Positions 3-59,062 of a stretch of 64,000 bases of DNA are shown piece by piece. The position numbers and the translations under genes are program-made. The notes under the pieces were generated by a model. The model worked only from the letters and a program-made list of their open reading frames with translations. It had not been told where the DNA came from and made no database searches. The DNA comes from Planctomycetota bacterium (GTDB taxonomy: Bacteria; Planctomycetota; UBA1135; UBA2386): positions 2,752,001-2,816,000 of the forward strand of contig JBKAGP010000001.1 of NCBI GenBank assembly GCA_046290465.1. The letters run 5' to 3'. Every line of letters begins with the position of its first letter. Within the stretch, counting starts at the first letter, position 1.

Positions 3-1028
3 GGCGACCTCGCCACCGGCTACCGCGCGTGCCTGTGGCTGCGCTCGGCGACCCGCGTGCAGGAGGAGCTGGTGCGCGGCCGCGTGCGCGATCGCGACGA
101 CCTGTACGAGCTGACCGGGTCGGTCGACTGGTCGATCTTCATCACTCCGCGCAACACGCTGGCGGTCGACGGCGCGGTGCGCGACAGCTTCGCCAACGAC
201 ACGCGCTACCCGTCGCTGGTCGTCAAGGACGCGATCTGCGACCAGTTCGTGCACTTCGACGGCGAACGGCCGAGCGTCGACCGCGACCAGCCGGACCTGC
301 CGCTCAAGCTGGTGCTGCAGCACGACCAGGCGATCCTCTACCGCGAGTTCGGCGGCGCGCCGCTGCACAAGCGCGGCTACCGCGAGGTGCAGCACAAGTC
401 GCCGCTCAACGAGGCGCTCGCCGCTGGGCTGGTGCTGTTGAGCGACTGGGACGGCGAGGCGCCGCTGGTCGACCCGATGTGCGGCAGCGCGACGTTCCTG
501 ATCGAGGCGGCGTTCCTGGCGATGGACCGGGCGCCGGGCCTCGGCCGGGCGTTCGCGTTCGAGCGCTGGAAGGACACCGACCAGGACGCGTGGCAGAAGG
601 TCTACGACGAGGCCGAGGAGCGCGCCGCCCGCCGCCAGGACGCCTGCCCGCAGCTCGCCGGCAACGACCGCCACCCCGGTGCGATCGCGATCGCCCGGAA
701 GGCGCTGCAGCAGGCGAGGCTCGGCGACCGGATCCAGCTCGACCACACCGACGCGCGCGACTGGCAGCCGCCGTTCGAACCCGAGTGGATCTGCACCAAC
801 CCGCCCTACGGCGAACGGCTGCAGAACGACGACGACTCGCTGTTCGACAGCTGGCGCTCGCTGGGCAACTTCCTGCATCGCTGCGACGGAGCCACCGCGC
901 ACGTGCTGTGCGGCGATTCCGCGCTGACGCGCCACCTCGGGCTGCGCGCCGACCGCAAGTTCCCGGTGCGCAACGGCCCGATCGAATGCCGCTGGCTGCG
1001 CTACGAGATCGGCGACGCCGAGCGCTGA
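3..1028 (+). CDS. THUMP-domain class I SAM-dependent rRNA methyltransferase (RlmL-type), 5'-truncated by the window edge
   Basis: Frame is open from position 3 (GYRACLWLRSATRV); contains LHKRGYR, PLNEALAA, DPMCGSAT and TNPPYGERL motifs. Confidence 0.9.
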   Translation, partial: GDLATGYRACLWLRSATRVQEELVRGRVRDRDDLYELTGSVDWSIFITPRNTLAVDGAVRDSFANDTRYPSLVVKDAICDQFVHFDGERPSVDRDQPDLPLKLVLQHDQAILYREFGGAPLHKRGYREVQHKSPLNEALAAGLVLLSDWDGEAPLVDPMCGSATFLIEAAFLAMDRAPGLGRAFAFERWKDTDQDAWQKVYDEAEERAARRQDACPQLAGNDRHPGAIAIARKALQQARLGDRIQLDHTDARDWQPPFEPEWICTNPPYGERLQNDDDSLFDSWRSLGNFLHRCDGATAHVLCGDSALTRHLGLRADRKFPVRNGPIECRWLRYEIGDAER

Positions 1029-2284
1029 GCGCGGCCGAGCGACGCGGCGATCCCGATCCAGAACAGCGCGAACCCGACCGTCACGGCGACGATCGCGCCG
1101 ACGCCGAGGCCGAGCTGCCGCAACCACACCTGCGCCAGGGCGCCGACGAGGTCGCCGAGGCGGTAGGCGAACGTGTCGAGCAGGAACTTGACCTTGTGCT
1201 TGGTGGCCAGGTCGAGCGGCGTGTAGAGCACCTCCCGCGCCGGCTTCTCGACCGCGTAGTTGATGCCGCGCCGGACGACCTGGATCACGAAGATCGCCGC
1301 GGCGGTCGGCACCAGCCAGTAGCCACCGAGGCCGAAGATCGAGAACACCGGCAGCGCCGCCAGCAACACGACCGCGCTGGTGCGCGTCATCATGCGGCCG
1401 GTCCAGAACACCTGCAGGAACAGCACGACCGCGTTGCCGTAGAGGCCGACGTCGGCGAGGAACGTGCGCTGCTGCCAGGCCTGGTCGATCTCTTCGCCGA
1501 CCAGCTCGGTCTGGGCCGCCTCGAACGCGGTCGCGACGAAGCCGACCAGCATGATGTAGATCATGATCTGGAACGCGCGGCGATCGCTGGCCAGGATCCG
1601 CAGCCCCTGCAGGATGCCGCCGGACGCGTGCTGGCGATCGGTGTCGCCGCCGTCGAGTCGCAGGCACGGATCGTGCGACCGGTAGAACGCGAACAGACCG
1701 ACCTGCATCAACACCGCGGCGGCCACACCGAAGCCCCACAACGGCACGTCCCAGCCGAGCTGTGCGGGCAGCTTGACGCCGTAGGAGCCCGCCATCGCCC
1801 CCAGCGTGCCGCCGACCGCGACCAGGCCGAACAGCCGTTTGGCCTGGCCCTTGCCGTAGTGCTCGACCGCGTGGATCCAGATCAGCGCCGGCACCGCGAC
1901 GTTCATCGCCGAGAAGCCGCCCCAGAAGACCTTGCCGATCCACGGGTTCTCGCTCCACCGGTGCTCGCCGACGAACGTGAAGCCGACCGCCAGCAGCAGC
2001 AGCGCAGCGGTGGCCACGTGCATGCAGATCGGCACGAACCGGCGGCTCGCCATCCGGTTGGCCAGCGACCAGAACGGCACCACCACGACCACCGTCGCGA
2101 CCAGCGTCATGCTGTACAGCTCCGGCATCGCCTCGACGCCGCGCGCCACCCCGAGCTGGCCGCGGATCGGGCGCAGCATGAACATGCTGGCCAGCGACGC
2201 GAAGTACATCACCGCGATCCAGAAGGTCGCATGGCGCTCGGCGCGGGTGGCCGTGTGCAGTCCGAGCGGGCGCCAGAGGTTCAT
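1001..2284 (-). CDS. MFS-type NTP/NDP exchange transporter (TLC/Npt-like)
   Basis: About 12 hydrophobic segments; LRPIR, AKRLFG..GG.LG, KPAREVLY and K.K...DT..YRLGD motifs. 3' end overlaps the rlmL-like gene. Confidence 0.8.
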   Translation of the reverse strand: MNLWRPLGLHTATRAERHATFWIAVMYFASLASMFMLRPIRGQLGVARGVEAMPELYSMTLVATVVVVVPFWSLANRMASRRFVPICMHVATAALLLLAVGFTFVGEHRWSENPWIGKVFWGGFSAMNVAVPALIWIHAVEHYGKGQAKRLFGLVAVGGTLGAMAGSYGVKLPAQLGWDVPLWGFGVAAAVLMQVGLFAFYRSHDPCLRLDGGDTDRQHASGGILQGLRILASDRRAFQIMIYIMLVGFVATAFEAAQTELVGEEIDQAWQQRTFLADVGLYGNAVVLFLQVFWTGRMMTRTSAVVLLAALPVFSIFGLGGYWLVPTAAAIFVIQVVRRGINYAVEKPAREVLYTPLDLATKHKVKFLLDTFAYRLGDLVGALAQVWLRQLGLGVGAIVAVTVGFALFWIGIAASLGRAQRSASPIS

Positions 2285-2384
2285 GGCCGCTGATTACGGG
2301 GAGGGCTCCGGCAGCGCGAGGATTCGTCGCGACTTTCACAGGACGGTGGTCCGGCGCGGCGCGCGCCCTATCGTGCCAGCGCGC

Positions 2385-3281
2385 ATGCGCGAACCCGGAA
2401 CCTCCTACGTCCCCCACCTGCTGATGACGGCGCTGATCGCGACGTGGGCCGGCAGCTTCGTGGTCGCCAAGTTCGCGATGCAGTGGATGACGCCGTTCGC
2501 GGTGGTCGCCTCACGCTTTCTGCTCGGATGCCTGTGCATCCTGCCGTTCTTCCTGCGCTCGACGGAGCGGCAGCGCGAGGGAACGCTCGGCCCGGGCATC
2601 CTCGCGGGCCTGGTGCTGGCGATTCCGTACTTCCTGCAGATGTATGGCGTGCGTGAGACCACCGCGTCGATGGGCGGCTTCGTGACCGGCCTGATCGTGC
2701 TGCTGGTCGCGGTCGGTGGCGCCCTGTTCTTCGGCGCGCGCATCGGCAGGGCGACGATCGTCGGGCTGATGCTCGGCCTGACCGGCATCGTCACGCTGTG
2801 TTTGACCGGCGACGTCGACCCCGACGGCGTGCAGACCAACACGCTGCGCGGCATCCTGCTGCAGGTCGGCTCGGCGGTCGGCTTCGCCGCGCACATCCTG
2901 CTGCTGTCGCACTACGGCAGCAAGCTCGCGACGGCGCCGTTCGCGTTCTGGCAGCTGGCGTTCACCGGCGCGCTCGCGACGCTCGGCACGATCTTCGTCA
3001 GCGGGATCGCGGTCGAAGGCGAGCCGTTCGCGTGGTCGCTCGGTCTGCTGCTGGCGCTCGGCTACCTCGGCGTGCTCGCGACCGGCGTCGCGATCGGCGT
3101 ACAGGCGTGGGTGCAGCCCAAGATCAAGCCGACCCACGTGGCGCTGCTGTTCGCGCTGCAGCCGCTGTTCGGCGCGATCGCCGGCTGGCTGTTCCGCGAC
3201 GAACACCTCGGCCCCGCGCAGTGGCTCGGCGGTGGCCTGATCGTGACCGCCGTCGTGATCACCGCACGCGAACGTTCCTGA
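2385..3281 (+). CDS. DMT/EamA family transporter
   Basis: ATG at 2385; two EamA-like halves (WAGSFVVAK, RFLLG, ALLFALQPLFG). Confidence 0.88.
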   Translation: MREPGTSYVPHLLMTALIATWAGSFVVAKFAMQWMTPFAVVASRFLLGCLCILPFFLRSTERQREGTLGPGILAGLVLAIPYFLQMYGVRETTASMGGFVTGLIVLLVAVGGALFFGARIGRATIVGLMLGLTGIVTLCLTGDVDPDGVQTNTLRGILLQVGSAVGFAAHILLLSHYGSKLATAPFAFWQLAFTGALATLGTIFVSGIAVEGEPFAWSLGLLLALGYLGVLATGVAIGVQAWVQPKIKPTHVALLFALQPLFGAIAGWLFRDEHLGPAQWLGGGLIVTAVVITARERS

Positions 3282-3334
3282 GCGGCGGTGCGCCGGTCCG
3301 GACCAGCGAGCCGTGCCGCCAGCTGTTCTGGTTG

Positions 3335-3931
3335 CTAGCGGTCCTGGGCCGCGCCCGGCTTGGGGTAGGCGCCGAGCTGCAGCCGGTAGCTGCGGCCGCC
3401 CTCGACCCGCTGGTCGTGGTACTTGGTCACCAGCTCGGCGATCGCGTCGGTCAGCTCGTCCGCGAACGCCGCGCGCGCTGCAGGCGACGCGAACCGCACC
3501 TCGGTCTCGGCGGCGAACGTCGGCAGCTGCTTGCCGGCCTGCTCGGCAGAGCGCTGCAGCTCTTCGAGTTCGCGGATCGTGCGCGACGCGAGCGCCACCT
3601 GGAACGCGACCGAGAAGCGGTCCTGGAACCGTTCGGGCGTCACCGCGAGCGGGCCGAGCACCGCCGACGACAGCGCGTAGCGCTCGCCGGTGCGGCGGTA
3701 GATCCGTTCGGTGACGCTGCCGCGCTTCTTCTCCTCGACCAGCTCCACCAGCTGCTGTGCCTCGAGCTCGCGCAGGTGGTAGTTGACGCGCTGACGCGGC
3801 AGGTCCAGCGCGCGCGCCAGCCCGGCCGCCGACGACGGATGCTCGAGCCGTTCGAGCAGCTGCAGACGCGTGCGGTCGAGCAGCACCTGGGCGCGCTCCG
3901 GCTCGCGCACGATGTCGACGACGCGGCTCAC
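3335..3931 (-). CDS. ArsR-like helix-turn-helix transcriptional regulator
   Basis: GTG start overlaps the upstream stop (GTGA); HTH segment SAAGLARALDLPRQRVNYHLRELE. Confidence 0.85.
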   Translation of the reverse strand: MSRVVDIVREPERAQVLLDRTRLQLLERLEHPSSAAGLARALDLPRQRVNYHLRELEAQQLVELVEEKKRGSVTERIYRRTGERYALSSAVLGPLAVTPERFQDRFSVAFQVALASRTIRELEELQRSAEQAGKQLPTFAAETEVRFASPAARAAFADELTDAIAELVTKYHDQRVEGGRSYRLQLGAYPKPGAAQDR

Positions 3932-28168: not shown

Positions 28169-28214
28169 CGCGTGCAACCTTAGCCGAGCCGGCCGCGGAT
28201 TCCTCGCCGCGCCG

Positions 28215-28301
28215 CTAGTGGGCAAAGCCCCGTCCGCACGCGTAGGCGCCGCTTCCGCGATCACGGTTGGCAGCGCGTCCACTACATGGACGCGCTCCTA
28301 G
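28215..28301 (+). repeat. Single copy of the 83-bp CTAG-bounded REP/BIME-like element
   Basis: CTAG-TGGGCAAAGCCC...AGCGCGTCCA-CTACA-TGGACGCGCT-C-CTAG; near-identical to the array units at 47715 and 57455. Confidence 0.92.
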
Positions 28302-28870
28302 CCCTTGGCGCGACCGAGGTAGTCGCCGGTGCGCGTGTCGATGTTGACGACCAGGCCCTGCTCGACGTTCTCGGGCACCTGCACCACGTAGCCGGTCTCG
28401 AGCGTCGCCGGCTTGCTGCGCGAGGTCGCCGAGTTGCCCTTCACCGCGGGCATCGTCTCGGTGATCGCGAGCGCGACCGTCGCCGGCAGCTCCAGCGCGA
28501 TCGGGGTGCCGTTGTAGTAGAGCGCGCGCACGTCCTCGAGGCCGTCCTTGAGGAACTTGCGCTCCCACTCCAGGTCCTCGTGCGACAGCGCGAACTGCTC
28601 GAACGACTCACTGTCCATGAAGTGGCACATGCCCGGCTCATCGTAGAGGTACTGGACCGGCCGCTTCTCGACGTCGGCCGCCGGCACCATCTCGCCGGCA
28701 CGCCACGACTTCTCGACCCGCTGGCCGGTCTTCAGGTTGCGGCAGCGGATGTGGTAGGTCGTCGTGCCGCCACGCGCGCCGCCCGAGGCGGCCTGCGTGT
28801 TCTCGACGATGTGCGGGGCATCGTCGACGTCGATGATGACGCCCTTCTTGAGTTCGTTGCTGGAGTACAT
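28298..28870 (-). CDS. Elongation factor P-like protein (EfpL/YeiP-type)
   Basis: EF-P fold motifs (QYLY.E...HFMD.E.FEQ, KPATLETG.VVQVP, IDTRTG.YLGRA); tip loop GGARGGTT rather than KPGKG. Confidence 0.85.
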   Translation of the reverse strand: MYSSNELKKGVIIDVDDAPHIVENTQAASGGARGGTTTYHIRCRNLKTGQRVEKSWRAGEMVPAADVEKRPVQYLYDEPGMCHFMDSESFEQFALSHEDLEWERKFLKDGLEDVRALYYNGTPIALELPATVALAITETMPAVKGNSATSRSKPATLETGYVVQVPENVEQGLVVNIDTRTGDYLGRAKG

Positions 28871-36350: not shown

Positions 36351-39023
36351 TCAGTTGCCCAGGCGGACCTTCAGGCCGTTGGTCACGACGAAGCCCGGCA
36401 GCAGCGACTCGTCGCCGGCCGGGTCGAACACACCGGCCTGGCAGTAGACCTCGAAACCGCTGAGCGCCGGGGTCGGCGGGATCGGCAGCGGCACGGCCGA
36501 GCGGCCGGCGAAGTTGGTCACGACCGCCCAGGTCGCGCCGATGTCGGCGATCAGGATGCCGCCGGGCGTGATCGGCAGCGGCGTCGTGCCGGCCGCGATG
36601 ACCGCGACCGAGAACGGCCGCACGTTGCGCAGGCCGATGCCGAACGTCGCGTTGCCGAGGGTCGGCAGCGCCGGCGTGCCGACCGGGTACAGGTTGGCCA
36701 GCAGCCCGCCGGTCCCGGTCGTGCCCGAACCGTAGTCGTCGGCGCGCGCGGTCGCGGCACCGAACAGCACGACGACCTCGCCCGACGCGGCGTCCGAGTA
36801 GAGCACGTCGCCGAAGCCGTCGCCGTCGACGTCGGCGATGCCGACGCCGCTGACGGTCGCGGCCGTCGCGACCACGCCACCCGCAGCCGGGCCGTAGTCG
36901 GTCCAGTTGCCGAGCACCGTGACGGTGCCGGCCGTCATGTTGACGACGGCAACGTCGCGACGTTCGGTGTCGGGGTCGCTGTCGGCGTCGAGCACGCCGG
37001 TCGCGATCTCCGTCGGGCCGCGGTCGACGCTGTAGAGCACGCGCGACAGGACGCCGGTGCCGTCGTTGGTGAACGCCTCGACGCCACCCTGGCCGAGCCC
37101 GAACGCGTCGATCGCAGCGGTCACCAGCACGTCCTGGTCGCCGTCGCCCTCGACGTCGGCGATCGCCGCCCGCGCCGGGTTGTTGGCGCAGCCCAGCGGC
37201 GAGCCGGCCGCGGCAGCGAACGCGCCGGTGCCGTCGCCCAGGAACACGTGCACGCGACCGGTGGTCGCGTCGCCCTCGGCGACGACGATGTCGGCGAAGG
37301 TGTCGCCGTCGAGATCCCCGACCGCGACGTCGCGGCAGGCGACCGAGTAGGCGGCGACCAGCGCCGCAGCGCTGAACGACGTGCCGGCGCCGTCGTTGAT
37401 CAGCGTGCTGGCCGAACCGGCGGTCAGGCCGGCCGCGCCGGCGTCCGAGACCACCAGGTCGTCGATGCCGTCGCCGTTCAGGTCGCCCGCGGCGAGGCCA
37501 CTCGGCGCGGTTGCGCCGACCAGCGTGGTCGTGCTGAGCAGCGACAGGCCGCCGCCACCGTTGTTGGTGAACACGTAGACCTTGTTCTCGGTGAGCACCG
37601 GCGGAACGCTGAGCGTTAGCACGGCGACGTCGACGCCGGCGGCGCCGTCGAACTCACCGGTGACGATCGAGACCGGGTCGCCGTCCGAGTTGCCGAACGG
37701 CACGGCCGACGTCGAGAACGTGCCGCCGGCGTTGAGGCCGACGACCACGGCGGGCACGGCCCCCTGGCACATCGCGGCGAAGTCCGGATCGGTGTCGCCG
37801 TCGAGGTCGGCGACCGCGAGGCCTACCGGCGCATAGCCGGGCGGCAGCATGGTCGCGACGCCCGCGCCGAGGCCGTTCACGTAGGGCTTCGCGGTGGCGT
37901 CGACGGCGGTGCCGCCGGCGATCGCGTAGGCGCCCGGCGAGGTCAGGCCGGAATACCAGTTGCCCTCGTAGGTGGTGCCGCCGGCCGCGGTGTCGTAGGC
38001 GTCGTTGTCGACGCCGCCGAGCGTCGCCGAGAACACGTTCTCGCGCACGTCGAGGCCGGTCGCATCGAAGTTCACCCACGCGTAGAGCGCGCCGTGCACG
38101 ACGTTGCGCCGCACGGTCGCCGGGATCGGCCCCGCGGTGCTCGAGTAGAAGTAGATGCCCGACTCGTTGCCGCCGAGGTTGCAGTCCTCGATGACGACCG
38201 TCGAGGCGTCGTAGATCAGCATGCCCGTCGCCGTGTAGCTGGACGGGTCGTACCAGTGGTTGAGGATCGTGGTCCGGCGGATCTCACCGCTGGCGCCCCG
38301 GCTGATCTGCACGCCGTTCTGCGCGGCGAGCGGCACGTCCGCATGCGGGTTGCCGCGCACCAGGCAGTCGTCCATGACCAGATGCGCGTCGAAGTTCGCG
38401 GCGACGCCGCCCTTGCCGTACTCGCGCACGACGCAGCCGCGCAGCGTGACGTTGGTCGGGTCGCCGACGCCGTCGCCGCGCACGTTGACGCCGAGCGGGC
38501 CCTGGATGCCGTTGATCGGGTTGGCGCGGGCGTTGACGCACTCGACGTTGTCGAGCACGGCATCGGCACCACCACCGACCCACAGGCAGTAGGCGCGGCC
38601 GGTGCCCGGGATGCTGAAGCCCTGGTCGAGCGTCAGGTCGCGCACGTAGGTCTCGGCGCTGCCCTGCAGCGCGAGCGCGCAGCGGTGCGCCTCGACGGTC
38701 GGCGCGCCGAGCGTGCCCGACGGCAGCAGCGCGTCGATCGACGTGTGCGCCTTGACGATCGTCATGCCGACGCCGGCACCCTGGATCGCGATGTCCTTGG
38801 TGCCGAGCACGAGGCTGCCCTGTTCGTCACCGTAGGTGGCGGCGAACAGGTGCACGACGTCACCGGCGGTGGCGACGGAGACCGCATGGTTGATGGTCTG
38901 GAACGGCATCGTCTCGGTGCCGGGGTCGGCGTCGTTGCCGGTGGGGCTTACCCACCAGTGGTTCTGGGCCGAGGCCGATGCGGCGAGCGCCATCGCGAAC
39001 GCGATGGAAAGAGGTCTGTTCAT
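36351..39023 (-). CDS. Secreted protein: DUF1565-like/beta-helix, FG-GAP (VCBS) repeats, C-terminal module
   Basis: Signal peptide; WVSP.G.D..PGT...PFQTI; repeated D.DGDG..D motifs; GGAG upstream. Confidence 0.85.
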   Translation of the reverse strand: MNRPLSIAFAMALAASASAQNHWWVSPTGNDADPGTETMPFQTINHAVSVATAGDVVHLFAATYGDEQGSLVLGTKDIAIQGAGVGMTIVKAHTSIDALLPSGTLGAPTVEAHRCALALQGSAETYVRDLTLDQGFSIPGTGRAYCLWVGGGADAVLDNVECVNARANPINGIQGPLGVNVRGDGVGDPTNVTLRGCVVREYGKGGVAANFDAHLVMDDCLVRGNPHADVPLAAQNGVQISRGASGEIRRTTILNHWYDPSSYTATGMLIYDASTVVIEDCNLGGNESGIYFYSSTAGPIPATVRRNVVHGALYAWVNFDATGLDVRENVFSATLGGVDNDAYDTAAGGTTYEGNWYSGLTSPGAYAIAGGTAVDATAKPYVNGLGAGVATMLPPGYAPVGLAVADLDGDTDPDFAAMCQGAVPAVVVGLNAGGTFSTSAVPFGNSDGDPVSIVTGEFDGAAGVDVAVLTLSVPPVLTENKVYVFTNNGGGGLSLLSTTTLVGATAPSGLAAGDLNGDGIDDLVVSDAGAAGLTAGSASTLINDGAGTSFSAAALVAAYSVACRDVAVGDLDGDTFADIVVAEGDATTGRVHVFLGDGTGAFAAAAGSPLGCANNPARAAIADVEGDGDQDVLVTAAIDAFGLGQGGVEAFTNDGTGVLSRVLYSVDRGPTEIATGVLDADSDPDTERRDVAVVNMTAGTVTVLGNWTDYGPAAGGVVATAATVSGVGIADVDGDGFGDVLYSDAASGEVVVLFGAATARADDYGSGTTGTGGLLANLYPVGTPALPTLGNATFGIGLRNVRPFSVAVIAAGTTPLPITPGGILIADIGATWAVVTNFAGRSAVPLPIPPTPALSGFEVYCQAGVFDPAGDESLLPGFVVTNGLKVRLGN

Positions 39024-39084
39024 GGTCAACTCCTGGAGGTTGAGCGAGGGAGAACGAGGGAGAACGAGGGAACGGGACAGGGCT

Positions 39085-41745
39085 TCAGTTGCCGACCCGC
39101 AGCCCGACCGCGGCGGTCAGGCTGAAGTCCGGCAGGAAGGAGGTGGTGGCGGCGAAGTCGAACACGCCGGCCTGCGCGTAGAACTGCAGGCCGTTGGCGA
39201 CCGGCACCGCCGGCAGCGGCAGCGCGAACGAGCCGCGACCGGCGCCGTCGAGCAGCGACGCGAACAGGAACACCGGCACGCCGAGCAGGTACTGGCACGG
39301 CTGCAGCACCGGCGCGACGTCGAGCGCGACCGCGCAGCCGGCGACGCTGTTGGGGAAGCCGTCGAGCAGGTCGAAGCGCAGCGTCGCGTTGGGCTGCACG
39401 GCGAGGCCCGGCGAGCCGCCGACGCGCAGCCGCGGCGTGCGGCCACCGGTGCCGGGGCAGCCCTGCCCGAGCGTCTGCACGCGCGCGGACGGCACGCCGG
39501 CCAGCAGCGCCACGCCGCCGCGCGACGGCTCGGCGACGATCAGGTCGCGGTAGCCGTCGAGGTCGAGGTCGGCGGCGACCACGTCGGTCGGAGCATCCAC
39601 GGCCGTGACCAGCCCGCCGTCGACGAAGCCGACACCGGCCAGGTGCGATCCGAACCGCGTCAGGTCGGAGGCCGCGCGGTTGAGCACGATCACGTCGGGG
39701 CCGGTCGGCGACGGGAACGTGTCGGCCCCGAAGTCGTCGGCGACCACGCGCCGCGGCCCGTGGTCGGTCGGCAGCGCCGCCGCCGGCTGCAGCGCACCGG
39801 CGACGTTGTCGAGGATCTGCAGCACGCCGCGCTGCAGCGGCAAGCCGCCGCCGAGCGCCGCGACCAGCACGTCGCGATCGCCGTCGCCGTCGTGGTCGGC
39901 GACCGTGACCGCGGTCGGCGAGTCCGGCAGCGGCGAGGCGCCGGTCGCGACCAGGCCGCCGACGCCGTCCCCGACGAAGCGCCGCAGTTCGCTGGCCGCA
40001 CCGGTGCCGCCGACCACGACCACGTCGTCGATCAGGTCGCCGTCGAGGTCGCCGCTGGCAACCGCGGTGACCGAACCCGAGAACGTCCCCGGCAGCGGCG
40101 TCGGCACCCAGTTGACCCCGTCGAACGCGTTGACGAACGACGTGCCGCCGCCCGCGGCCAGCGTCGGCGCGCCGCGATCGACGACGACCAGGTCGTCGCG
40201 CGCATCGCCGTTGAGGCGCACGACCCCGAGGTCACTCGGGTCGGCCATCGCGGCCAGCGGTTCTTGGTGCAGCAGCGACAGGCCGCCGCTGCCGTCGTTG
40301 GCGAACACCCAGAAGGCCGCACCGTTGGGCAGCGGTGGCGACGGTGCCGTCAGCGCGACGACGTCGGCGCCGACCGCGCCGTCGAACTCACCGACGAGCA
40401 GGCGGACCGGCCGCAGCGCGGCCCCGCCGAGCGGCGCCACCGCCAGCTGGTAGCCGGTCGGTCGCCACAGCGCCACGGTCAGCGCGGCGCCGTTGCCGAC
40501 GTGGTCGAGCGTCGCGAAGTCCTCGCGCCCGTCGCCGTCGAAGTCGGCCGCGACCACGGCGACCGGCGCGCCACCGCAGACCACGCGCTGCGGATCGGCG
40601 AACGTTCCGATGCCGGCGAACGCCGCCGCGTCCGCGCTGCCCCCGCCGGCGATCGGCACCGGGGCGGTGGCCTCTGCTACCGGGACCGGAAAGCGGTTGC
40701 CGGCCCACGCGTTGCCCGCCGCGGTGTCGTCGAAGGCGACCAGCGGATCGAAGCGCGAGACCGGCGACAGGGCGTTGCCGCGGACCAGCAGGCCGGAGAC
40801 GCCCGACAGGCGGATCGCGGTGTCGACCGCGCTGATCCGGTTGTGCGAGACCTCGCCCGGCACGATCGACGGCGGCTGGTGTTCGAAGTCGATGCCGACC
40901 GCGCAGCCGGAGATGCGGTTGGCGTCGAGCACGCAGCCGGTGGTCGGCTGCCGCAGACGCACGCCGGCGCCGCCGCCACCGCCGCACGCCAGCAGGCGGC
41001 ACGCATGCACGCGCAGCCGCGCGTCGTCGGCGACCGTGACGGCGACCTGGTCGACGCTCGCCGCAGCACCGCCGCCGACGGCGAGGCACTCCTGCAGGTC
41101 CAGCTCGGCGCGCAGCCGCCCGAACACGCCACCGTCGCCGAAGCCGCGCAGTTCGCACAGGCGCAGGAACAGCGTGGTCGGATCGATCGCGACGCTGCCT
41201 TCGACGACGACCGCGTGCGCACGGCCGCCCGGCGCGTTGCCGGCGCGGCAGTCGCGCAGCGCGCAGCGGTCGACGACGACGTCGGCGCCGCCGCGCAGGT
41301 AGAGCCCGGCGAGGTGTCCGCTCGGCGCGGCGTTCGCCTGGGCGTCGATCGTCAGGTCGCGCAGGTGCACGCGCGCCGGGCCGTCGACCAGCACGCCGAC
41401 GCGATGCGCGACGGCGGCGCCGCCACCGATCTGCGCCGGCGGCAGCGGCGCGGTCGCCGAGGCGTGCGGCCGCAGGATCGTGGCACCGACGCCCGCCCCC
41501 TGCAGCACGAGGTCCTTGCCGCCGAGCGTGACGAGGCCCTGTTCGTCGCCGAACACCCCCGCCTGCAGGAACAGCGTCTGCCCCGACGACGCGACCGACG
41601 CGGCGTGCTGGATCGTGCGGAACGGTGCCGACGGGGTGCCGGCGGCCGCGTCGCTGCCGCTGGGCGAGACGTGCCACTGCGCCGGCAGCAGCGCGGAGAT
41701 CGAGACGGCGGCGAGGAACGAGACGGCGAGGGCGGGTGCTTGCAT
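39085..41745 (-). CDS. Secreted paralog: DUF1565-like/beta-helix, FG-GAP repeats, C-terminal module
   Basis: Same architecture and co-linear motifs as 36351..39023 (GDEQG...LG.KD, GEFDGA.G.DV, QAGVFD). Confidence 0.85.
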   Translation of the reverse strand: MQAPALAVSFLAAVSISALLPAQWHVSPSGSDAAAGTPSAPFRTIQHAASVASSGQTLFLQAGVFGDEQGLVTLGGKDLVLQGAGVGATILRPHASATAPLPPAQIGGGAAVAHRVGVLVDGPARVHLRDLTIDAQANAAPSGHLAGLYLRGGADVVVDRCALRDCRAGNAPGGRAHAVVVEGSVAIDPTTLFLRLCELRGFGDGGVFGRLRAELDLQECLAVGGGAAASVDQVAVTVADDARLRVHACRLLACGGGGGAGVRLRQPTTGCVLDANRISGCAVGIDFEHQPPSIVPGEVSHNRISAVDTAIRLSGVSGLLVRGNALSPVSRFDPLVAFDDTAAGNAWAGNRFPVPVAEATAPVPIAGGGSADAAAFAGIGTFADPQRVVCGGAPVAVVAADFDGDGREDFATLDHVGNGAALTVALWRPTGYQLAVAPLGGAALRPVRLLVGEFDGAVGADVVALTAPSPPLPNGAAFWVFANDGSGGLSLLHQEPLAAMADPSDLGVVRLNGDARDDLVVVDRGAPTLAAGGGTSFVNAFDGVNWVPTPLPGTFSGSVTAVASGDLDGDLIDDVVVVGGTGAASELRRFVGDGVGGLVATGASPLPDSPTAVTVADHDGDGDRDVLVAALGGGLPLQRGVLQILDNVAGALQPAAALPTDHGPRRVVADDFGADTFPSPTGPDVIVLNRAASDLTRFGSHLAGVGFVDGGLVTAVDAPTDVVAADLDLDGYRDLIVAEPSRGGVALLAGVPSARVQTLGQGCPGTGGRTPRLRVGGSPGLAVQPNATLRFDLLDGFPNSVAGCAVALDVAPVLQPCQYLLGVPVFLFASLLDGAGRGSFALPLPAVPVANGLQFYAQAGVFDFAATTSFLPDFSLTAAVGLRVGN

Positions 41746-42000
41746 GAAACGGCGCCCCGACCAGTTCGACGGATGGGACACTCCTCCAAACGGCGGACCA
41801 TAGGCACGTGGGACATGCGACCACGCACCGAATGGGATCTTGACACCTCGTTACATACTGTGCCGCGGCAACTACGAACGATGCCCCACCAGGTAGCCTG
41901 CGACTGCGGTCATCCTCCAGCGCTGCGCGCGGCGAGAGTTGGAGGATGAACCGCGTACCGTACGGCTACTTTCCCCGACCAGCTGGTCCCGCAGCCTGGA

Positions 42001-46104: not shown

Positions 46105-47717
46105 GCCTGCTGCTCGCCGACCTGCGGGCGCTGGCCAACCTGCCGACGACGGCGGTCGGCCGGCGGATCTCGGTCGGCATGGCGATCGGGCTGACGCTGC
46201 TCGGGCTGATGGCGTGGTGGCTGGCGACGTTCGTACTCGAACGGGTCGCGCTCGAGGCGTCCCCGACCGGCGCGTTCGGCTACGCGCTGATGACCTGCCC
46301 GATCGTCGCGACCTGGCTCGGCCTCGCGATCGGCCAGCGGCAGCTGTTCGAGACCCCGGAGCTGATGCTGTGGCGGCAGGCGCCGATCGCCGGCGCCCGC
46401 GGTTCGATGCAGATCTTCCTGCGCGCGGTGTTCGTGTCGACGCTGTGGTCGAGCGCGCTCGCCGGCCCGATGGTGGTCGCGCTGCTGCAGCAGGCCGGGG
46501 CCGCGCCGCTCGCGTACTGGCTGGTCGCGCCGGCGATCGTCGCGTGCACCGCGCCGCTGCTGGCGACGCTGCTCGGCGTGCAGATCGTGATGGTGCGGTT
46601 CTTCGCCGGCCGCTGGATGCGCCTGTTGCTGTCGGCGGTCGCGGCGCTGGCTTCGGTCGGCTTCACCATCTGGCTGCTGCTCAACCTGTTCACGACCGGC
46701 GCCGACCGCGTCGCCGAGGTCCGCGAGGCGGCGCGGTCGGGCGACCGGCTGCGCATGTCCGTGCGCGACGCCGCCGAGATGCTGGCGCAGGCCACCGACG
46801 GCACGCCACCGACGTCGTCGCTGCTGTGGGTCCTGGCGTGGATCGCCGCGGCGTTCGTCGGATTCGGCCTCGCGTCGCTGCTGCATCCGCGCGCGCACGA
46901 ACGCTACCTCGAGTCGGACCGGCCGCTGTGGCGGCGCAGCGGCCGGCGCTGGCCGACCTCGTTGGCCAGCAACGTGCGCAAGAAGGAGTTCGCCCAGGTG
47001 CTGCAGCAACCGGGTGCGTTGATCGGCTTCCTGGTGTTCGCGGTGCTGGTGTTCGCGCTGGCGCGCGAGCACGTGCTGGTCGACTCGATCCTGCGCCAGA
47101 CCCGCCTGCCGCGCGACGTGCGCACGATCGCGGCGCTGCTGACCTGGTGGTTCCTCGCCGTGCTGCTGGTGCTCTACACGCACATGGGTCGGCTGGCGCT
47201 GTGGGACGGTTCGCAGTGGCCGCTCTACATGGGTTCGCCCGAACGGCCCGGCGCGATCCTGCGCGGCAAGCTGCAGGCGATCGCGACGTTCTTGCTGTGG
47301 CCGCTGCTGCTGGTCGCCGTCGTCGGCGTGCAGATGATCGGCGCCAGCGCGCGTGAGGTCGCGTGGTTCGTCGGCTTCGCGCTCGCCGGCACGCTCGGCG
47401 CGCTCGGCGTCGTCGCCGTGATCGGCACCTGGCCGCGGCTGATGCGGCCGGACGCCGAAGGCCAGATCATGCAGGGCGGCAAGAGCTTCCTCGCCGCGAT
47501 GGTGATGGTGACGACGTTCCAGGTCACGATGATCCCGGCCATCCTGTTCTGGTCGTGGTTGACGCGCTACGTCCGCCGCCACCCCCTGCCCGATGCCGAG
47601 GTCGCCGAACACCTGCCGACGCTGCTCGCCGGCGCGTTCGGCTACGGCCTGCTGATCGCCCTGACCGGCACCTGGCTCGGCAGCCGCAACTACCGCACGC
47701 TGCTGGCCCCGCGATAG
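46101..47717 (+). CDS. Putative ABC exporter permease
   Basis: About 12 TMs; ATGA coupling to the ATPase gene. Confidence 0.8.
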   Translation: MSLLLADLRALANLPTTAVGRRISVGMAIGLTLLGLMAWWLATFVLERVALEASPTGAFGYALMTCPIVATWLGLAIGQRQLFETPELMLWRQAPIAGARGSMQIFLRAVFVSTLWSSALAGPMVVALLQQAGAAPLAYWLVAPAIVACTAPLLATLLGVQIVMVRFFAGRWMRLLLSAVAALASVGFTIWLLLNLFTTGADRVAEVREAARSGDRLRMSVRDAAEMLAQATDGTPPTSSLLWVLAWIAAAFVGFGLASLLHPRAHERYLESDRPLWRRSGRRWPTSLASNVRKKEFAQVLQQPGALIGFLVFAVLVFALAREHVLVDSILRQTRLPRDVRTIAALLTWWFLAVLLVLYTHMGRLALWDGSQWPLYMGSPERPGAILRGKLQAIATFLLWPLLLVAVVGVQMIGASAREVAWFVGFALAGTLGALGVVAVIGTWPRLMRPDAEGQIMQGGKSFLAAMVMVTTFQVTMIPAILFWSWLTRYVRRHPLPDAEVAEHLPTLLAGAFGYGLLIALTGTWLGSRNYRTLLAPR

Positions 47718-48120
47718 CGGGCAAAGCCCCGTCCGCACGCGTACACGCCGCTTCCGCGATCACGGTTGGCAGCGCGTCCACTGCATGGACGCGCTCCTAG
47801 CGGGCAAAGCCCCGTCCGCACGCGTACACGCCGCTTCCGCGATCACGGTTGGCAGCGCGTCCACTGCATGGACGCGCTCCTAGCGGGCAAAGCCCCGTCC
47901 GCACGCGTACACGCCGCTTCCGCGATCACGGTTGGCAGCGCGTCCACTGCATGGACGCGCTCCTAGCGGGCAAAGCCCCGTCCGCACGCGTACACGCCGC
48001 TTCCGCGATCACGGTTGGCAGCGCGTCCACTACATGGACGCGCTCCTAGCGGGCAAAGCCCCGTCCGCACGCGTACACGCCGCTTCCGCGATCACGGTTG
48101 GCAGCGCGTCCACTACATGG
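47715..48120 (+). repeat. Tandem array of the 83-bp element (4 full units plus a 74-bp partial)
   Basis: Units begin with TAG at 47715, 47798, 47881, 47964 and 48047; identical except loop CTGCA (units 1-3) vs CTACA (units 4-5). Confidence 0.97.
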
Positions 48121-48146
48121 GCGGGTCGGGCCGCGAGCGCGATGGC

Positions 48147-55849: not shown

Positions 55850-57412
55850 TTGAAGAAGTCCGCCAAGCCAAAGGGCCCTCGCAATCTCGACAAACACCTG
55901 TTCGAGGCGGGCCAGCAGTGCCACAAGCGTCTGTGGCTCGACTACCACGAACCGTCGGACGAGAGCCCGTCGGCCAGTCGCCAGGAGATGTCGCGAGTCG
56001 GCGACGAGATGCGCGAACTCGCGCGCACGGCGTTCCCCAAGGGCGTCGTGATCGACGACGACGACGTCGACACCGCCGCCGCGACCACCACGAAGCACCT
56101 CGAGGACGGGGTGCCGGTGCTGTTCGACGCGACCTTCGTCGGTGACGGCGTCGCCGCGCGGTGCGACATCCTGGTCGTGCACAAGGACAAGTTGGTCGAC
56201 CTGTTCGAGATCAAGTCCGGCACCAAGGTGAAGCACCGCTACGTCAACGACCTGGCGCTGCAGGCGACGGTGCTGGCGGCCAACGGCTACCAGGTGCAGC
56301 GCGCCTACCTGCTGCACATCAACCCCAAGTACACCCACAAGGCCGGCGAGCCCTACCCGCCGATGCAGCTGCTGCGCAGCGCCGACGTCACCGCCAAGGT
56401 GCACAAGCAGCAGCCCAACGTGGCGCGCAAGCTGCAGCAGCTGCGGCAGGCGGTCGACAACGACAGCGTGCTCGAGCTGCCGATGGGCACGTTCTGCGAG
56501 AACCCGTTCCCGTGCCCGCACATCGCGCGCTGCGCGAAGGACGCACCGGACCTGCCGCTGCACCGCCTGCCCGAACTGACCCGGCAGCAGGAGCTCGATC
56601 TGCACAAGGAGGGCATCGAGGAGATGCTCGCCGTGCCGGCCGACCGCGAGGACCTGTCGTTCCGCCAGCGCCGCACGCTGCAGTGCCACCAGCAGAACGA
56701 ACGCATCGTCGAGCCGTTCGTGCGCGACGAGCTCGGCGAGTGCGACAAGCCGCTGCACTTCCTGGCGCTCGCGGCGATCACCGATCCGCTGCCGCGCTTC
56801 GACAACCAACGGCCGTGGCAGCAGACGCCGTTCGCGTGGGCCTGCAAGACCGTGCACGAGGACGGCCGCGTCGAGACGCAGTCGTTCGCGCAGATCGACA
56901 AGGACGACCCGCGCGGCCCGTTCGTCAAGAGCCTGGCGCGCCACCTCGAGGTCGGCGGCACCGCGCTGCTGTGGGGCGAGGAGACGCTGCGCGAGCTGCG
57001 CGGCCTGCTCGATGCCGTGCCGGACGAGAAGGCCAGCGTGCGTGCGCTGCTCGGCCAGGACCACCTGGACATGCGGGCGCTGTTCGAGTCGAGCGTGTTC
57101 GACCCGAAGCTGACCGACTACTCGGACTTCGCGGAGGTCGTCGAACTGATGCTCGGCGACAACTCCGGCCGCAAGCTCGAAGCCCTCGATCGCAACACCC
57201 GGTTCGAGCTCGTGCACAAGGCGCGCGCCCCGCGCGTGCGCGCGGCGACGCGCGACAAGATCGCGGCGACCATCACCGACGCGCTGGCGTGGCAGGCCGA
57301 GCAGCTCTCGGAGCTGTTCGCGTCGTTCACCGGCGCGGCACCGAAGCCGAAGGCCGAGCGTGCGAAGGCGGCTCCGCGCCCGGCCAAGCCGCTGCCGAAG
57401 CTGCCGGAGTAG
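55850..57412 (+). CDS. DUF2779-domain protein: Cas4/RecB-like PD-(D/E)XK nuclease plus RNase H-like domain
   Basis: QCHKRLWL, RCDIL..EIKSGT..DLALQ, C..PFPCP..C; RPWQQTPF; DPR..F...L. Confidence 0.85.
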   Translation: MKKSAKPKGPRNLDKHLFEAGQQCHKRLWLDYHEPSDESPSASRQEMSRVGDEMRELARTAFPKGVVIDDDDVDTAAATTTKHLEDGVPVLFDATFVGDGVAARCDILVVHKDKLVDLFEIKSGTKVKHRYVNDLALQATVLAANGYQVQRAYLLHINPKYTHKAGEPYPPMQLLRSADVTAKVHKQQPNVARKLQQLRQAVDNDSVLELPMGTFCENPFPCPHIARCAKDAPDLPLHRLPELTRQQELDLHKEGIEEMLAVPADREDLSFRQRRTLQCHQQNERIVEPFVRDELGECDKPLHFLALAAITDPLPRFDNQRPWQQTPFAWACKTVHEDGRVETQSFAQIDKDDPRGPFVKSLARHLEVGGTALLWGEETLRELRGLLDAVPDEKASVRALLGQDHLDMRALFESSVFDPKLTDYSDFAEVVELMLGDNSGRKLEALDRNTRFELVHKARAPRVRAATRDKIAATITDALAWQAEQLSELFASFTGAAPKPKAERAKAAPRPAKPLPKLPE

Positions 57413-57454
57413 CGTTGCCCGAGCGCCGTCCGTCGCGGCGCAGCGGGCGCGCCG

Positions 57455-57680
57455 CTAGGAGCGCGTCCATGTAGTGGACGCGCTGCCAACCGTGATCGCG
57501 GAAGCGGCGAGTACGCGTGCGGACGGGGCTTTGCCCGCTAGGAGCGCGTCCATGTAGTGGACGCGCCGCCAACCGTGATCGCGGAAGCGGCGAGTACGCG
57601 TGCGGACGGGGCTTTGCCCGCTAGGAGCGCGTCCATGTAGTGGACGCGCCGCCAACCGTGATCGCGGAAGCGGCGTGTAC
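57455..57680 (-). repeat. Tandem array of the 83-bp element in reverse orientation (2 full units plus a 60-bp partial)
   Basis: CTAG at 57455, 57538 and 57621; reverse complement of the 47715 unit with a few substitutions. Confidence 0.96.
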
Positions 57681-58451
57681 ACTCGCGACATCGCAACCGT
57701 CGGGCGTGAATTCCCACAGTTCGGGGGTTCGACCAAGAACCTTCGACGTGGGCGTGAGGAGGTGTTCGACGCCCCAGACGCACAGCGGCCTACCTTCGGC
57801 CAGCCAACGGTATGGGGGGATGGCTGGCAGACTCCTCCTGGGTGGTTCAGCGGGATTCCCGTGTGCCCATGCGACGAAGCCGAGTTCGAGCGGATGAAGC
57901 AGGGCGGCGCGAAGGTCAAGGCAGACGATCCTGGCATGGTCGAGAAGTTCCACAGTCCCGCCGAGAAGTGCTACCGGGTGTGGTTTGCGAACGATGTTGC
58001 AGGCAACCAGTGCTGTTTCGACGAGAACGGCAAGCTCATCAACCAAGGCCCAGGTGCTGGCACGCCGGACATGTACAACCCCAGGTTTATCGGCATGCAC
58101 TTCTTCGTCGACGTCCTGGCCTTCTCAATGCTTGGGTGGAAGAAACACCACAAACAAGGCTGGGGTCCGATCTCGGAAGACTGTCCAGACAACAGCGGCG
58201 GCTACCCCGCGCCTGTTGGTGGGTTTCCTCCTGCACCTCCGCGCGAACCCAACCCTCCGAAACCAAGACCCAAACCGGACGAAGTGGCGCAGAGAATCGG
58301 CCGTCAGTGCGAGACTCAGTGCTTCAACGAGATGCTGCAGGAGTTCGGCCCGTCTTTCGACACTGATCCGGACGCCGGTCCGTTCTTCGACGACTGCGTC
58401 GATGAGTGCATGGACATCTGGGCGGAGATCCTTGGCAAGGGTTGGGGGTAG
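57681..58451 (+). pseudogene. AMOP (isthmin-like) domain protein, probably N-terminally truncated
   Basis: W..IPVCPC...H.PA.KCYR...NQCCFDENGKLI..GPGAGTP......HFFVDVL; the frame runs out of the repeat array with no convincing start. Confidence 0.65.
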
Positions 58452-58478
58452 AGCCTGCGCCTCGTCCTCGAACTCCTG

Positions 58479-58667
58479 GTGTGGGCAGGCTGCTTGTTCG
58501 GCGCAGGGCTGATCGTCGCCGGCCTGGGCTGGATCGGGCTTCGAGAACTCGATGGGTCGCATGAGTCCGGCGATTGGATCATCTCAACTCTCGGCTTGCT
58601 GGTGCTGCTGTTGAGTGTGTGCCTCGGATTCGCGGTGCGGCGGCGACGGCGACAGACGGGACAGTAG
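58479..58667 (+). CDS. Small two-TM protein
   Basis: Two hydrophobic segments and a basic RRRRR tail; same frame as the AMOP ORF, after its TAG. Confidence 0.4.
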   Translation: MWAGCLFGAGLIVAGLGWIGLRELDGSHESGDWIISTLGLLVLLLSVCLGFAVRRRRRQTGQ

Positions 58668-58673
58668 GGGACA

Positions 58674-58880
58674 TCACAGCCTGATCTTCTCGACCTCGTC
58701 GAGGCTCGCCTCTTCGCCCATGACGATCGTAGAGCCTCGTCGTCTGCGAGCTCGCATGTGCGGCCATCTGCTGCGCCCTGTCGAGCTGCCCGTCGTTGCT
58801 GAGGTAGGCCGTGATCCCAGTGGCGCGCAGCGTGTGGTTGGAGAACCCAACCAGCCGGCGCTGCTGTACGCGACGTTCTT
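58674..58880 (-). pseudogene. Tyrosine recombinase/integrase C-terminal fragment, frameshifted
   Basis: NHTLRATGITAYL..G.L..AQQMAAHAS..TT.LYDR, then a +1 shift to GEEASLDEVEKIRL*; N-terminal part absent. Confidence 0.85.
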
Positions 58881-59062
58881 CTGTCAATGGCTCGTGCGGG
58901 ATCCCCCTGCGAGTCAACGGTTCGCGCTCACGCCCGGTCTTCGCCTAAGCCTGCGTCAGGGACAACCCTCTGGGCCGCCGGCGGCTGCGTGCGGGCCTCC
59001 GAGCCCGAAAGCGGCTTGAGCACGCTGCGTGGTGAGCGATGCGGGCTAGCATCTGACGCGCG

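Follow-up and report, generated by a model that had tools for sequence, protein, structure and literature searches.

On the best reading of our data, the window, a stretch of 64,000 nucleotides of a Planctomycetota genome, encodes a true bacterial AMOP domain that is the variable C-terminal tip of a polymorphic effector, and the gene carrying it is an orphan copy from a system of jelly-roll proteins, leader, tip and immunity protein. In the version of this reading that we favour, to which we assign a probability of roughly 0.6, AMOP would be a disulfide-stabilised enzymatic warhead directed against the envelope of competitors, mounted on a jelly-roll-engaging leader and accompanied by a membrane immunity protein. 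The features discussed below are collected in Table 1.

Table 1. Coordinates of features in the window and, where marked G000, elsewhere in the same genome.
Feature	Position	Strand	Basis
Further 83-bp repeat sites	28208-28302, 47715-48123		window
Repeat array, 2.8 copies of the 83-bp palindromic repeat	57452..57680	+	blastn; X3 contig
Low-GC islet (GC 0.57-0.66 versus 0.70)	57684..58950	.	GC profile
Leader motif, consensus DLAxVPRExPQFGKSxxNxARxRxEVFG	57684..57767	+	leader alignments
AMOP domain	57837..58199	+	Pfam, PDB phmmer, fold match, homolog covariation
IPVCPC motif	57855-57872	+	ORF translation
FHSPAEKCYR	57948-57977	+	same frame as IPVCPC
AGNQCCFD...GAGTPD	57999-58070	+	same frame as IPVCPC
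HFFVDVL	58098-58118	+	same frame as IPVCPC
DCPDN	58179-58193	+	same frame as IPVCPC
Pro-rich flexible linker	58200..58274	+	sequence; low pLDDT, model residues 135-145
Cys-containing two-helix tail and stop codon	58275..58451	+	AlphaFold model, homolog alignment
Small two-TM ORF, candidate immunity gene	58455..58667	+	two hydrophobic segments
3′ remnant, tyrosine recombinase gene	58674..58848	-	PF00589 E 9e-4, below cut-off, profile 126-168
3′ remnant of a gene family native to the genome	58846..58946	+	nucleotide match
Two adjacent gp19-type tube genes (eCIS-like locus), third tube gene, Hcp, Rhs frame	G000:C1:995089-995947, 1592584-1593003, 2114706-2115116, 3930275-3930541		

The Pfam AMOP profile (PF03782) matched the window protein over profile positions 16-128 of 143 with an E-value of 1.6e-5 and 25.5 bits against a gathering score of 25, and a second scoring of the domain in the genome scan gave 26.3 bits. 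This pass is marginal, since the full-length twin of the window protein, P0002, scores 24.8 bits, below the cut-off. When the PDB was searched with phmmer, the isthmin structure ISM1 9C6T was the sole significant sequence match (E 4.8e-7), and a profile from 90 homologs covered the entire domain of 9C6T at E 1.4e-29. The AlphaFold model of the window protein (pLDDT 86.8) aligned to 9c6t_B with Z 14.7 and an rmsd of 3.0 over 138 residues, the runner-up reaching Z 6.5, and Foldseek paired model and ISM1 at E 1.3e-6; the ISM1 AMOP fold, a half-barrel with flanking helices, is present in the model. The original prediction had called an AMOP domain from sequence motifs and named the Pfam and AlphaFold comparisons as checks on that call. 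Both bear it out, the motifs it quoted all lie in a single forward frame where it had placed them, and the Pro-rich linker and paired-cysteine tail that it described are likewise there, the tail running to the stop at 58451. That tail is modelled as a two-helix hairpin and recurs among leader-type homologs as well as in P0006, a homolog of the Rhs type. Its structure matches are generic helical ones of Z 6.5 or less, and matches to PipA (E 0.03-0.05) were taken as chance.

The six cysteines of the domain make up three isthmin-type pairs. Among the best 150 of 360 homologs, pairs 124-139, 91-195 and 89-138 covary (p 1e-20, 2e-8 and 4e-5), and they correspond to C5-C7, C4-C9 and C3-C6 of ISM1 as given in the available part of the structure paper (PMC12000326); the corresponding disulfides are predicted in the window domain from this pattern. 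The same part of that paper describes four disulfides in human AMOPs and reports the C1-C8 disulfide as strictly conserved among them, and the window domain has no cysteine at either position of this fourth pair. The domain is a bacterial member of the AMOP family and no isthmin. It is the sole match to the Pfam profile in its own genome, and 14 control genomes gave no match to the AMOP profile.

A word-index search with the AMOP protein had returned nothing; an exhaustive phmmer search found at least 360 representatives at E 0.001 or better, of which we analysed the best 150. PF03782 matched 84 of the 103 homologs scanned at E 1e-4. Classified with home-made Rhs core and eCIS_core profiles, by eye for the leader and by a crude hydrophobicity test, the best 150 comprise 34 Rhs, 32 eCIS_core, 7 leader, 27 signal- or TM-bearing and 50 other proteins, many of these last being fragments. 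Rhs or eCIS_core carriers thus account for 66 of the 100 classifiable homologs, and NCBIfam confirmed the Rhs core in five of six tested. AMOP lies no more than 100 aa from the C-terminus in all 34 Rhs and in 30 of the 32 eCIS_core proteins. Because it ends Rhs, eCIS_core and leader proteins, bacterial AMOP behaves as a polymorphic-effector tip, in line with the C-terminal tip and possible polymorphic effector module of the original prediction; the suggested survey of full-length bacterial homologs likewise found Rhs, eCIS_core and Cys/Gly-leader N-termini. The accompanying claim of an Rhs-like or secreted carrier does not hold for this gene: neither the window protein (P0001) nor P0002 has an Rhs core or YD repeats (NCBIfam) or, by the crude hydrophobicity test, a signal peptide, and PF13699 (eCIS_core, DUF4157) is missing from the window protein and from P0002. 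The window carrier is a short Cys/Gly-rich leader, a type associated with jelly-roll gene cassettes.

Named homologs include an Anaerolineae protein and Tautonia proteins. The Pfam AMOP profile matched 3 of 401 phylum genomes (one of them unconfirmed) and the bacterial AMOP profile 10 of 339 class genomes; the viral contigs and phage records searched gave no AMOP match. Several candidates were discarded: L001 and L002 from the contig scan were spurious, matching the C-terminus of DNA ligase, L005, a weak match with an internal stop, was unconfirmed by the bacterial profile and dropped, and L027/L052a, AMOP-like by eye, did not match that profile. In a tree of 70 of 151 domains the carriers are interleaved, with nine to ten changes needed for Rhs and, in bootstrap trees, three for the leader label; strongly supported branches force one change only for the leader type, and a single origin is compatible with them. 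The window clade falls inside a 97/94-supported group with 12 Rhs rows. A separate supported clade (P0008, P0011, P0012 and P0018) consists of small lipoprotein-like standalone AMOPs and includes Tautonia members.

The window copy itself is incomplete. Its genome is a single contig of 6.59 Mb and 70% GC, and its 283-aa ORF (57600-58451) opens within a repeat array, reading through the 83-bp repeat for its first 28 codons before gene-derived sequence begins at 57684. P0002 (339 aa) shares 93% identity with the remaining 255 residues and extends 84 residues further at its N-terminus. In run X3, one contig spans the locus, and there a sister strain has 430 other bases where the window has 225 bases of repeat, with the joint at 57458/57684. 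On the strength of the P0002 comparison and this contig, the window gene is a 5′-clipped allele of a P0002-type protein, its first 84 codons replaced by the repeat; the original prediction was right about AMOP and overlooked this truncation. We infer that the 430 bases encode the N-terminus of P0002, and X3 substitutions account for 14 of the 17 residue differences between the window protein and P0002, as counted by hand among the differences listed.

The 83-bp repeat has 168 blastn hits in 115 clusters in its own genome, in copies that are 90-100% identical and stand singly or in tandem, up to six together; the third copy of the array is 63 nt long. It is GC-rich with a perfect 10-bp hairpin (z -3.2). 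As a short hairpin-forming unit, single or tandem and dispersed, it is like REP/BIME-type repeats, from which it differs in its 83-bp unit and in having no Rfam match. At 57459-57683 it is strain-variable, replacing the 5′ end of the gene, and it supplies the clipped gene with in-frame GTG codons at 57600 and 57675. Because one of these lies nine bases before the leader motif, a shortened product is possible: translation could restart there and yield a protein resembling other family members.

The 1.3-kb islet lies between a DUF2779 gene and a sensor-kinase gene, and it contains the AMOP gene, the two-TM ORF and the 3′ ends of a tyrosine recombinase gene, whose final codons are in another frame, and of a native gene, which over 101 nt is 77% identical to the end of a 336-aa frame at G000:C1:1414445-1414545. 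In all 11 same-genus loci compared, the 1.5 kb around the DUF2779 gene gave no match to the islet, and in two of them the sensor kinase follows that gene closely. Runs X3 and X6 have about 155 additional bases at window position 58990. The DUF2779 protein (55850-57412, forward strand) has an N-terminal Cys/His motif and is conserved in 13 of 14 same-genus genomes, and the reverse strand at 36354-41781 encodes two tandem secreted paralogs of about 890 aa with FG-GAP-like repeats recognised by eye.

We found no promoter- or terminator-like site at the window locus, and the allele is probably silent or decaying. Taken further, the truncation, the flanking integrase and gene remnants, the missing promoter-like site and the one difference from P0002, out of 17, that hits a residue shared by 140 of the 150 best homologs would fit a fragment that was acquired horizontally and is now dead, with no functioning system to back it in this lineage. 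We consider this extremely improbable, as it speaks to the window allele only: sister strains hold the locus in a longer form, the open frame runs undisturbed through 255 codons, and a complete cassette with the same leader survives in the genome.

That cassette gives the leader its context. The clipped remnant begins at the PQFG leader motif, whose P, Q, F, G and R are invariant in 12 of 12 aligned leaders, and its first residues matched a second island in the same genome (G000:C1:1342211-1358000; L006, L066). This island is linked to tRNA-Ala and low in GC, with an integrase, a Prim-Pol, an AlpA-like gene (by eye) and a pentapeptide-repeat gene, and has the look of a satellite-type element. 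It holds three paralogous genes for proteins of 113-127 aa (G000:C1:1345784-1346853), followed by a 374-aa gene with the leader motif of the window and a different C-terminus. A leader-motif profile matched 10 of 339 class genomes, all in the family of the window. Outside the window's own genome, the motif opens the gene directly behind jelly-roll genes at nine of ten loci, the tenth having only about 300 bases upstream; none of the nine has an AMOP tip, and their tips are mostly unrelated. Among 11 leader-bearing proteins, two pairs of tips are alike and the rest differ.

The layout is recurrent: one to three paralogous jelly-roll genes of about 115 aa, then a gene of about 300-500 aa that joins a Cys/Gly-rich leader through a Pro/Gly linker to an exchangeable tip, and lastly a gene for a small membrane or exported protein. 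Of 401 phylum genomes, 29 carry the jelly-roll family; its 40 clusters fall in 35 loci, and 19 clusters contain two or more paralogs. The next gene opens with at least four cysteines in 30 residues behind 21 of the 37 clusters with enough downstream DNA (three loci being near-copies), versus 27 of 376 controls; no difference from the control was seen in its ORF length (30/37 versus 301/376). A leader-AMOP gene stands directly behind jelly-roll genes at L012, L013, L015, L089 and L090, which amount to about two independent lineages, L012, L013, L089 and L090 being near-copies. At L017 no jelly-roll match was found in the 3.3 kb upstream of the leader-AMOP gene, and the window locus has no jelly-roll gene, the 430 bases of the sister strain leaving no room for one.

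The cassette tips vary widely. Pfam recognised 5 of 31 in a first set, including DUF3750 in three and DUF6973 in one and no named toxin family, leaving 26 of 31, and all eight of a second set, without a family. L021 and L024 have HExxH motifs; other tips are AMOP, hydrophobic hairpins or, mostly, unrecognised. The tips of L049, L099 and L103 look Ntox44-like, a likeness set aside for want of a Pfam or NCBIfam match. A recurrent Cys-containing beta-type tip, also without match in Pfam or NCBIfam, was seen at L030, L032, L033, L034, L043, L053 and L105. L049 and L052 each have two cassettes in tandem, and L054 carries a second cassette on the opposite strand (985-3573, reverse), with divergent jelly-roll-like genes and then a Cys-leader gene, which suggests that the jelly-roll family is wider than its profile reaches.

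None of the three jelly-roll proteins of the G000 island matches Pfam, nor do the two tested match NCBIfam, and a word-index search gave 157 relatives, of which the 120 listed are all unnamed or hypothetical. The structural model (pLDDT 89) is closest to PirA (Z 10.9, rmsd 2.4, 96 aligned residues, 10% identical), followed by XepA and a birnavirus capsid domain (both Z 10.6), and also resembles Ena2A (Z 9.1), CBMs and the BPP-1 cement protein (Z 8.3); as many as 30 chains score Z 8 or more, and identity to the top matches is 10-14%. Such folds would suit a virion accessory cassette, in which the jelly-roll protein decorates a satellite or phage capsid or tail and the effector travels on or in hijacked particles in a MuF-like manner. 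PHROG 9522, a 'major tail protein' family, matches 6 of 44 members, with E 4.4e-7 at best, the closest Atlas clusters consist of hypothetical proteins of phages, Bbp16 being present in 11% of the members of one such cluster, and the cassette of the own genome sits in the tRNA-Ala island with integrase and Prim-Pol. We nevertheless regard this explanation as improbable: single-sequence searches of viral contigs and 50,697 phage records with the jelly-roll protein found no match, and we saw by eye no capsid, terminase or tail genes in the flanks available for the 18 wider loci.

How the cassette products would leave the cell bears on a further alternative. By the crude hydrophobicity test, none of 44 jelly-roll proteins and 16 leaders has a signal peptide, and we found no Rhs, DUF4157, LXG or secretion genes in the cassette; the sole companions that recur throughout are the jelly-roll proteins, and this favours a carrier or binding role for them. 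Alternatively, a T6SS or eCIS encoded elsewhere could deliver the leader proteins as cargo, the jelly-roll proteins serving as adaptors and the Cys/Gly leader as the signal for loading, a proposal that fits the missing signal peptides. Elsewhere in its genome the window gene has the company of Hcp, three gp19-type tube genes and a single Rhs core, the last in a 2228-aa frame about 1.1 Mb away; AMOP is often joined to eCIS_core, and a similar CxC-GG-CxxC stretch opens many eCIS_core proteins. Against this, 26 of the 38 cassette-bearing genomes (62-97% complete) have neither Hcp nor the tube family PF06841, Hcp occurring in 8 and PF06841 in 4 of 38, the latter versus a phylum background of 71 of 401, and a comparison of the leader profile with P0020 gave no match, at a probability of 0.05%. 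We therefore rejected an obligatory eCIS or T6SS link and hold the cargo explanation to be very unlikely.

What the tip might do is suggested by its conservation. In the numbering of ORF 57600-58451, H118, R126 and Q137 are kept in all of the best 150 of 360 homologs, D157 in 149, H167 in 148, D171 in 147 and T155 in 146, counts that are biased towards the residues of the window protein, with which the homologs were gathered. Five of the six cysteines are less conserved than H118, R126, Q137, D157, H167 and D171. Since polar residues outrank cysteines, a catalytic or ligand site is suggested, and these six residues form a candidate, enzyme-like active site. By profile alignment, ISM1 retains Arg126, His167 and Asp171 in the bacterial numbering and has Lys, His and Asn at His118, Gln137 and Asp157. 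The invariant polar residues suggest that the animal "adhesion" domain may have begun as an enzyme. A standalone AMOP with an N-terminal hydrophobic segment (L019:4586-5188) lies on a 42%-GC, possibly eukaryotic contig with few long ORFs and retains the bacterial-type His/Arg/Gln/Asp/His/Asp residues.

Behind the window gene lies the small two-TM ORF, with an uncertain start (CTG 58455 or GTG 58479) and no Pfam family over cut-off, which is a candidate immunity gene. Small TM ORFs follow the AMOP gene at 8 of 14 distinct loci with downstream DNA, a count that has no background control, and were seen behind both Rhs and leader carriers. No such gene is evident at L018, L019, L094, L096 or L097; L095 has a larger signal-anchored ORF and L102 an ankyrin protein after the tip gene. 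Together, the invariant polar residues and the frequent small membrane gene point to an enzymatic toxin with an immunity partner, and the host-interaction role in the original prediction finds no support.

The same evidence weighs on an adhesive, non-toxic surface module, in which the jelly-roll proteins would form a fibre or coat, the leader protein would be a variable adhesin and AMOP would bind a host or matrix ligand. Animal AMOP is extracellular according to the available part of PMC12000326, and the likeness of the jelly-roll to Ena fibres, CBMs and phage cement would suit such a module, as would the 27 of 150 homologs that are signal- or TM-bearing standalones, some with Ig or OmpA domains; the runs covering the islet are labelled as aquaculture and marine metagenomes. 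Yet Rhs or eCIS_core proteins carry two thirds of the classifiable homologs, the sibling tips look like proteases or hydrolases, an invariant His/Arg/Gln/Asp set is unusual in a pure adhesin, and a TM gene often stands 3′ of the AMOP gene. We judge this explanation unlikely.

Under the toxin reading that we prefer, the jelly-roll proteins would bind the leader and act as carrier or receptor-binding partner, as PirA does in a binary toxin. Since none of its parts has a signal peptide, the complex may exit by lysis or another route. Once in the oxidising exterior, the AMOP tip would form its three disulfides, and its His/Arg/Gln/Asp/His/Asp site would attack a cell-envelope substrate of competing bacteria, perhaps a lipid or lipid-linked glycan, from which the small TM protein would protect the producer. 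The window copy, which has no jelly-roll neighbours and sits on a decayed mobile islet, is an orphan, and jelly-roll partners could be supplied in trans by the three-gene cassette at about 1.346 Mb of G000, whose effector shares the leader motif. That the parts are toxic, bind one another and are exported is inferred.

A bolder proposal, possible in our view and still one against which we would bet, is that these cassettes, with their membrane immunity gene, are a self-contained and hitherto undescribed Planctomycetota class of toxin delivery, a polymorphic binary toxin in which two or three jelly-roll paralogs make up the binding part and AMOP is the warhead with an envelope-acting His-Arg-Gln-Asp-His-Asp site, and that animal AMOP derives from such a warhead, ISM1 keeping half the site. 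AMOP would then join the animal extracellular domains with relatives in bacterial conflict systems. The available part of the 2025 structure paper (PMC12000326) reassigns the reported AKT activity of ISM1 to co-purifying growth factors. A bacterial family of this size, with its invariant polar residues and effector context, offers a route to test AMOP for an enzymatic or ligand site and to ask which animal AMOPs retained the polar site. The jelly-roll/leader cassette may be a new trafficking module and could serve as a marker in the search for further tips; the window copy itself is only a clipped orphan.

Bacterial AMOP is present in database tables, and a description of it as an effector tip was not found in the literature covered. 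The open full-text literature searched yielded no paper describing a bacterial AMOP effector or such a cassette. AMOP is absent from the available parts of PMC3482391 and PMC12419801 (the latter by term search) and from 10 supplements of PMC11297309, and the part of the PMC8213781 supplement at hand lists pfam03782 with 7 prokaryotic counts, none in eCIS.

Compared with the AMOP domains (PF03782; 9C6T) of ISM1/ISM2, SUSD2 and MUC4, the window domain is alike in fold, in the CPC, CxR, QCC, LITxGxGAGTP and HxxxDV motifs and in three of four disulfide pairs, and unlike in lacking the C1-C8 pair, a TSR, NIDO or vWD partner and a signal peptide. The cassette shares with polymorphic toxin systems (Rhs, eCIS_core/DUF4157, MuF; Zhang et al. 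2012, described in the available part of PMC3482391) a constant N-terminal carrier whose C-terminal tips are exchangeable, a small gene behind it, and the occurrence of tandem cassettes and orphans. The AMOP tip is moreover common to the leader, Rhs and eCIS_core trafficking classes, a polymorphic toxin trait. Unlike those systems, its carrier is a short Cys/Gly leader coupled to one to three jelly-roll genes. In PirAB, pirA precedes pirB in gene order, and in the cassette, too, a small jelly-roll protein is encoded upstream of a larger effector, a likeness to PirA that is one of fold only. The cassette departs from PirAB, XepA and YomS in its 10-14% identity and its two or three paralogs instead of one, and from PirAB in a variable partner (AMOP, DUF3750, DUF6973 or other) in place of a Cry-like pore former, in its immunity-like gene and in showing no sign of an animal target. 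At the window locus the jelly-roll gene is not adjacent, unlike the PirA-type arrangement, and the window gene is a member of neither Rhs, eCIS_core nor PirAB.
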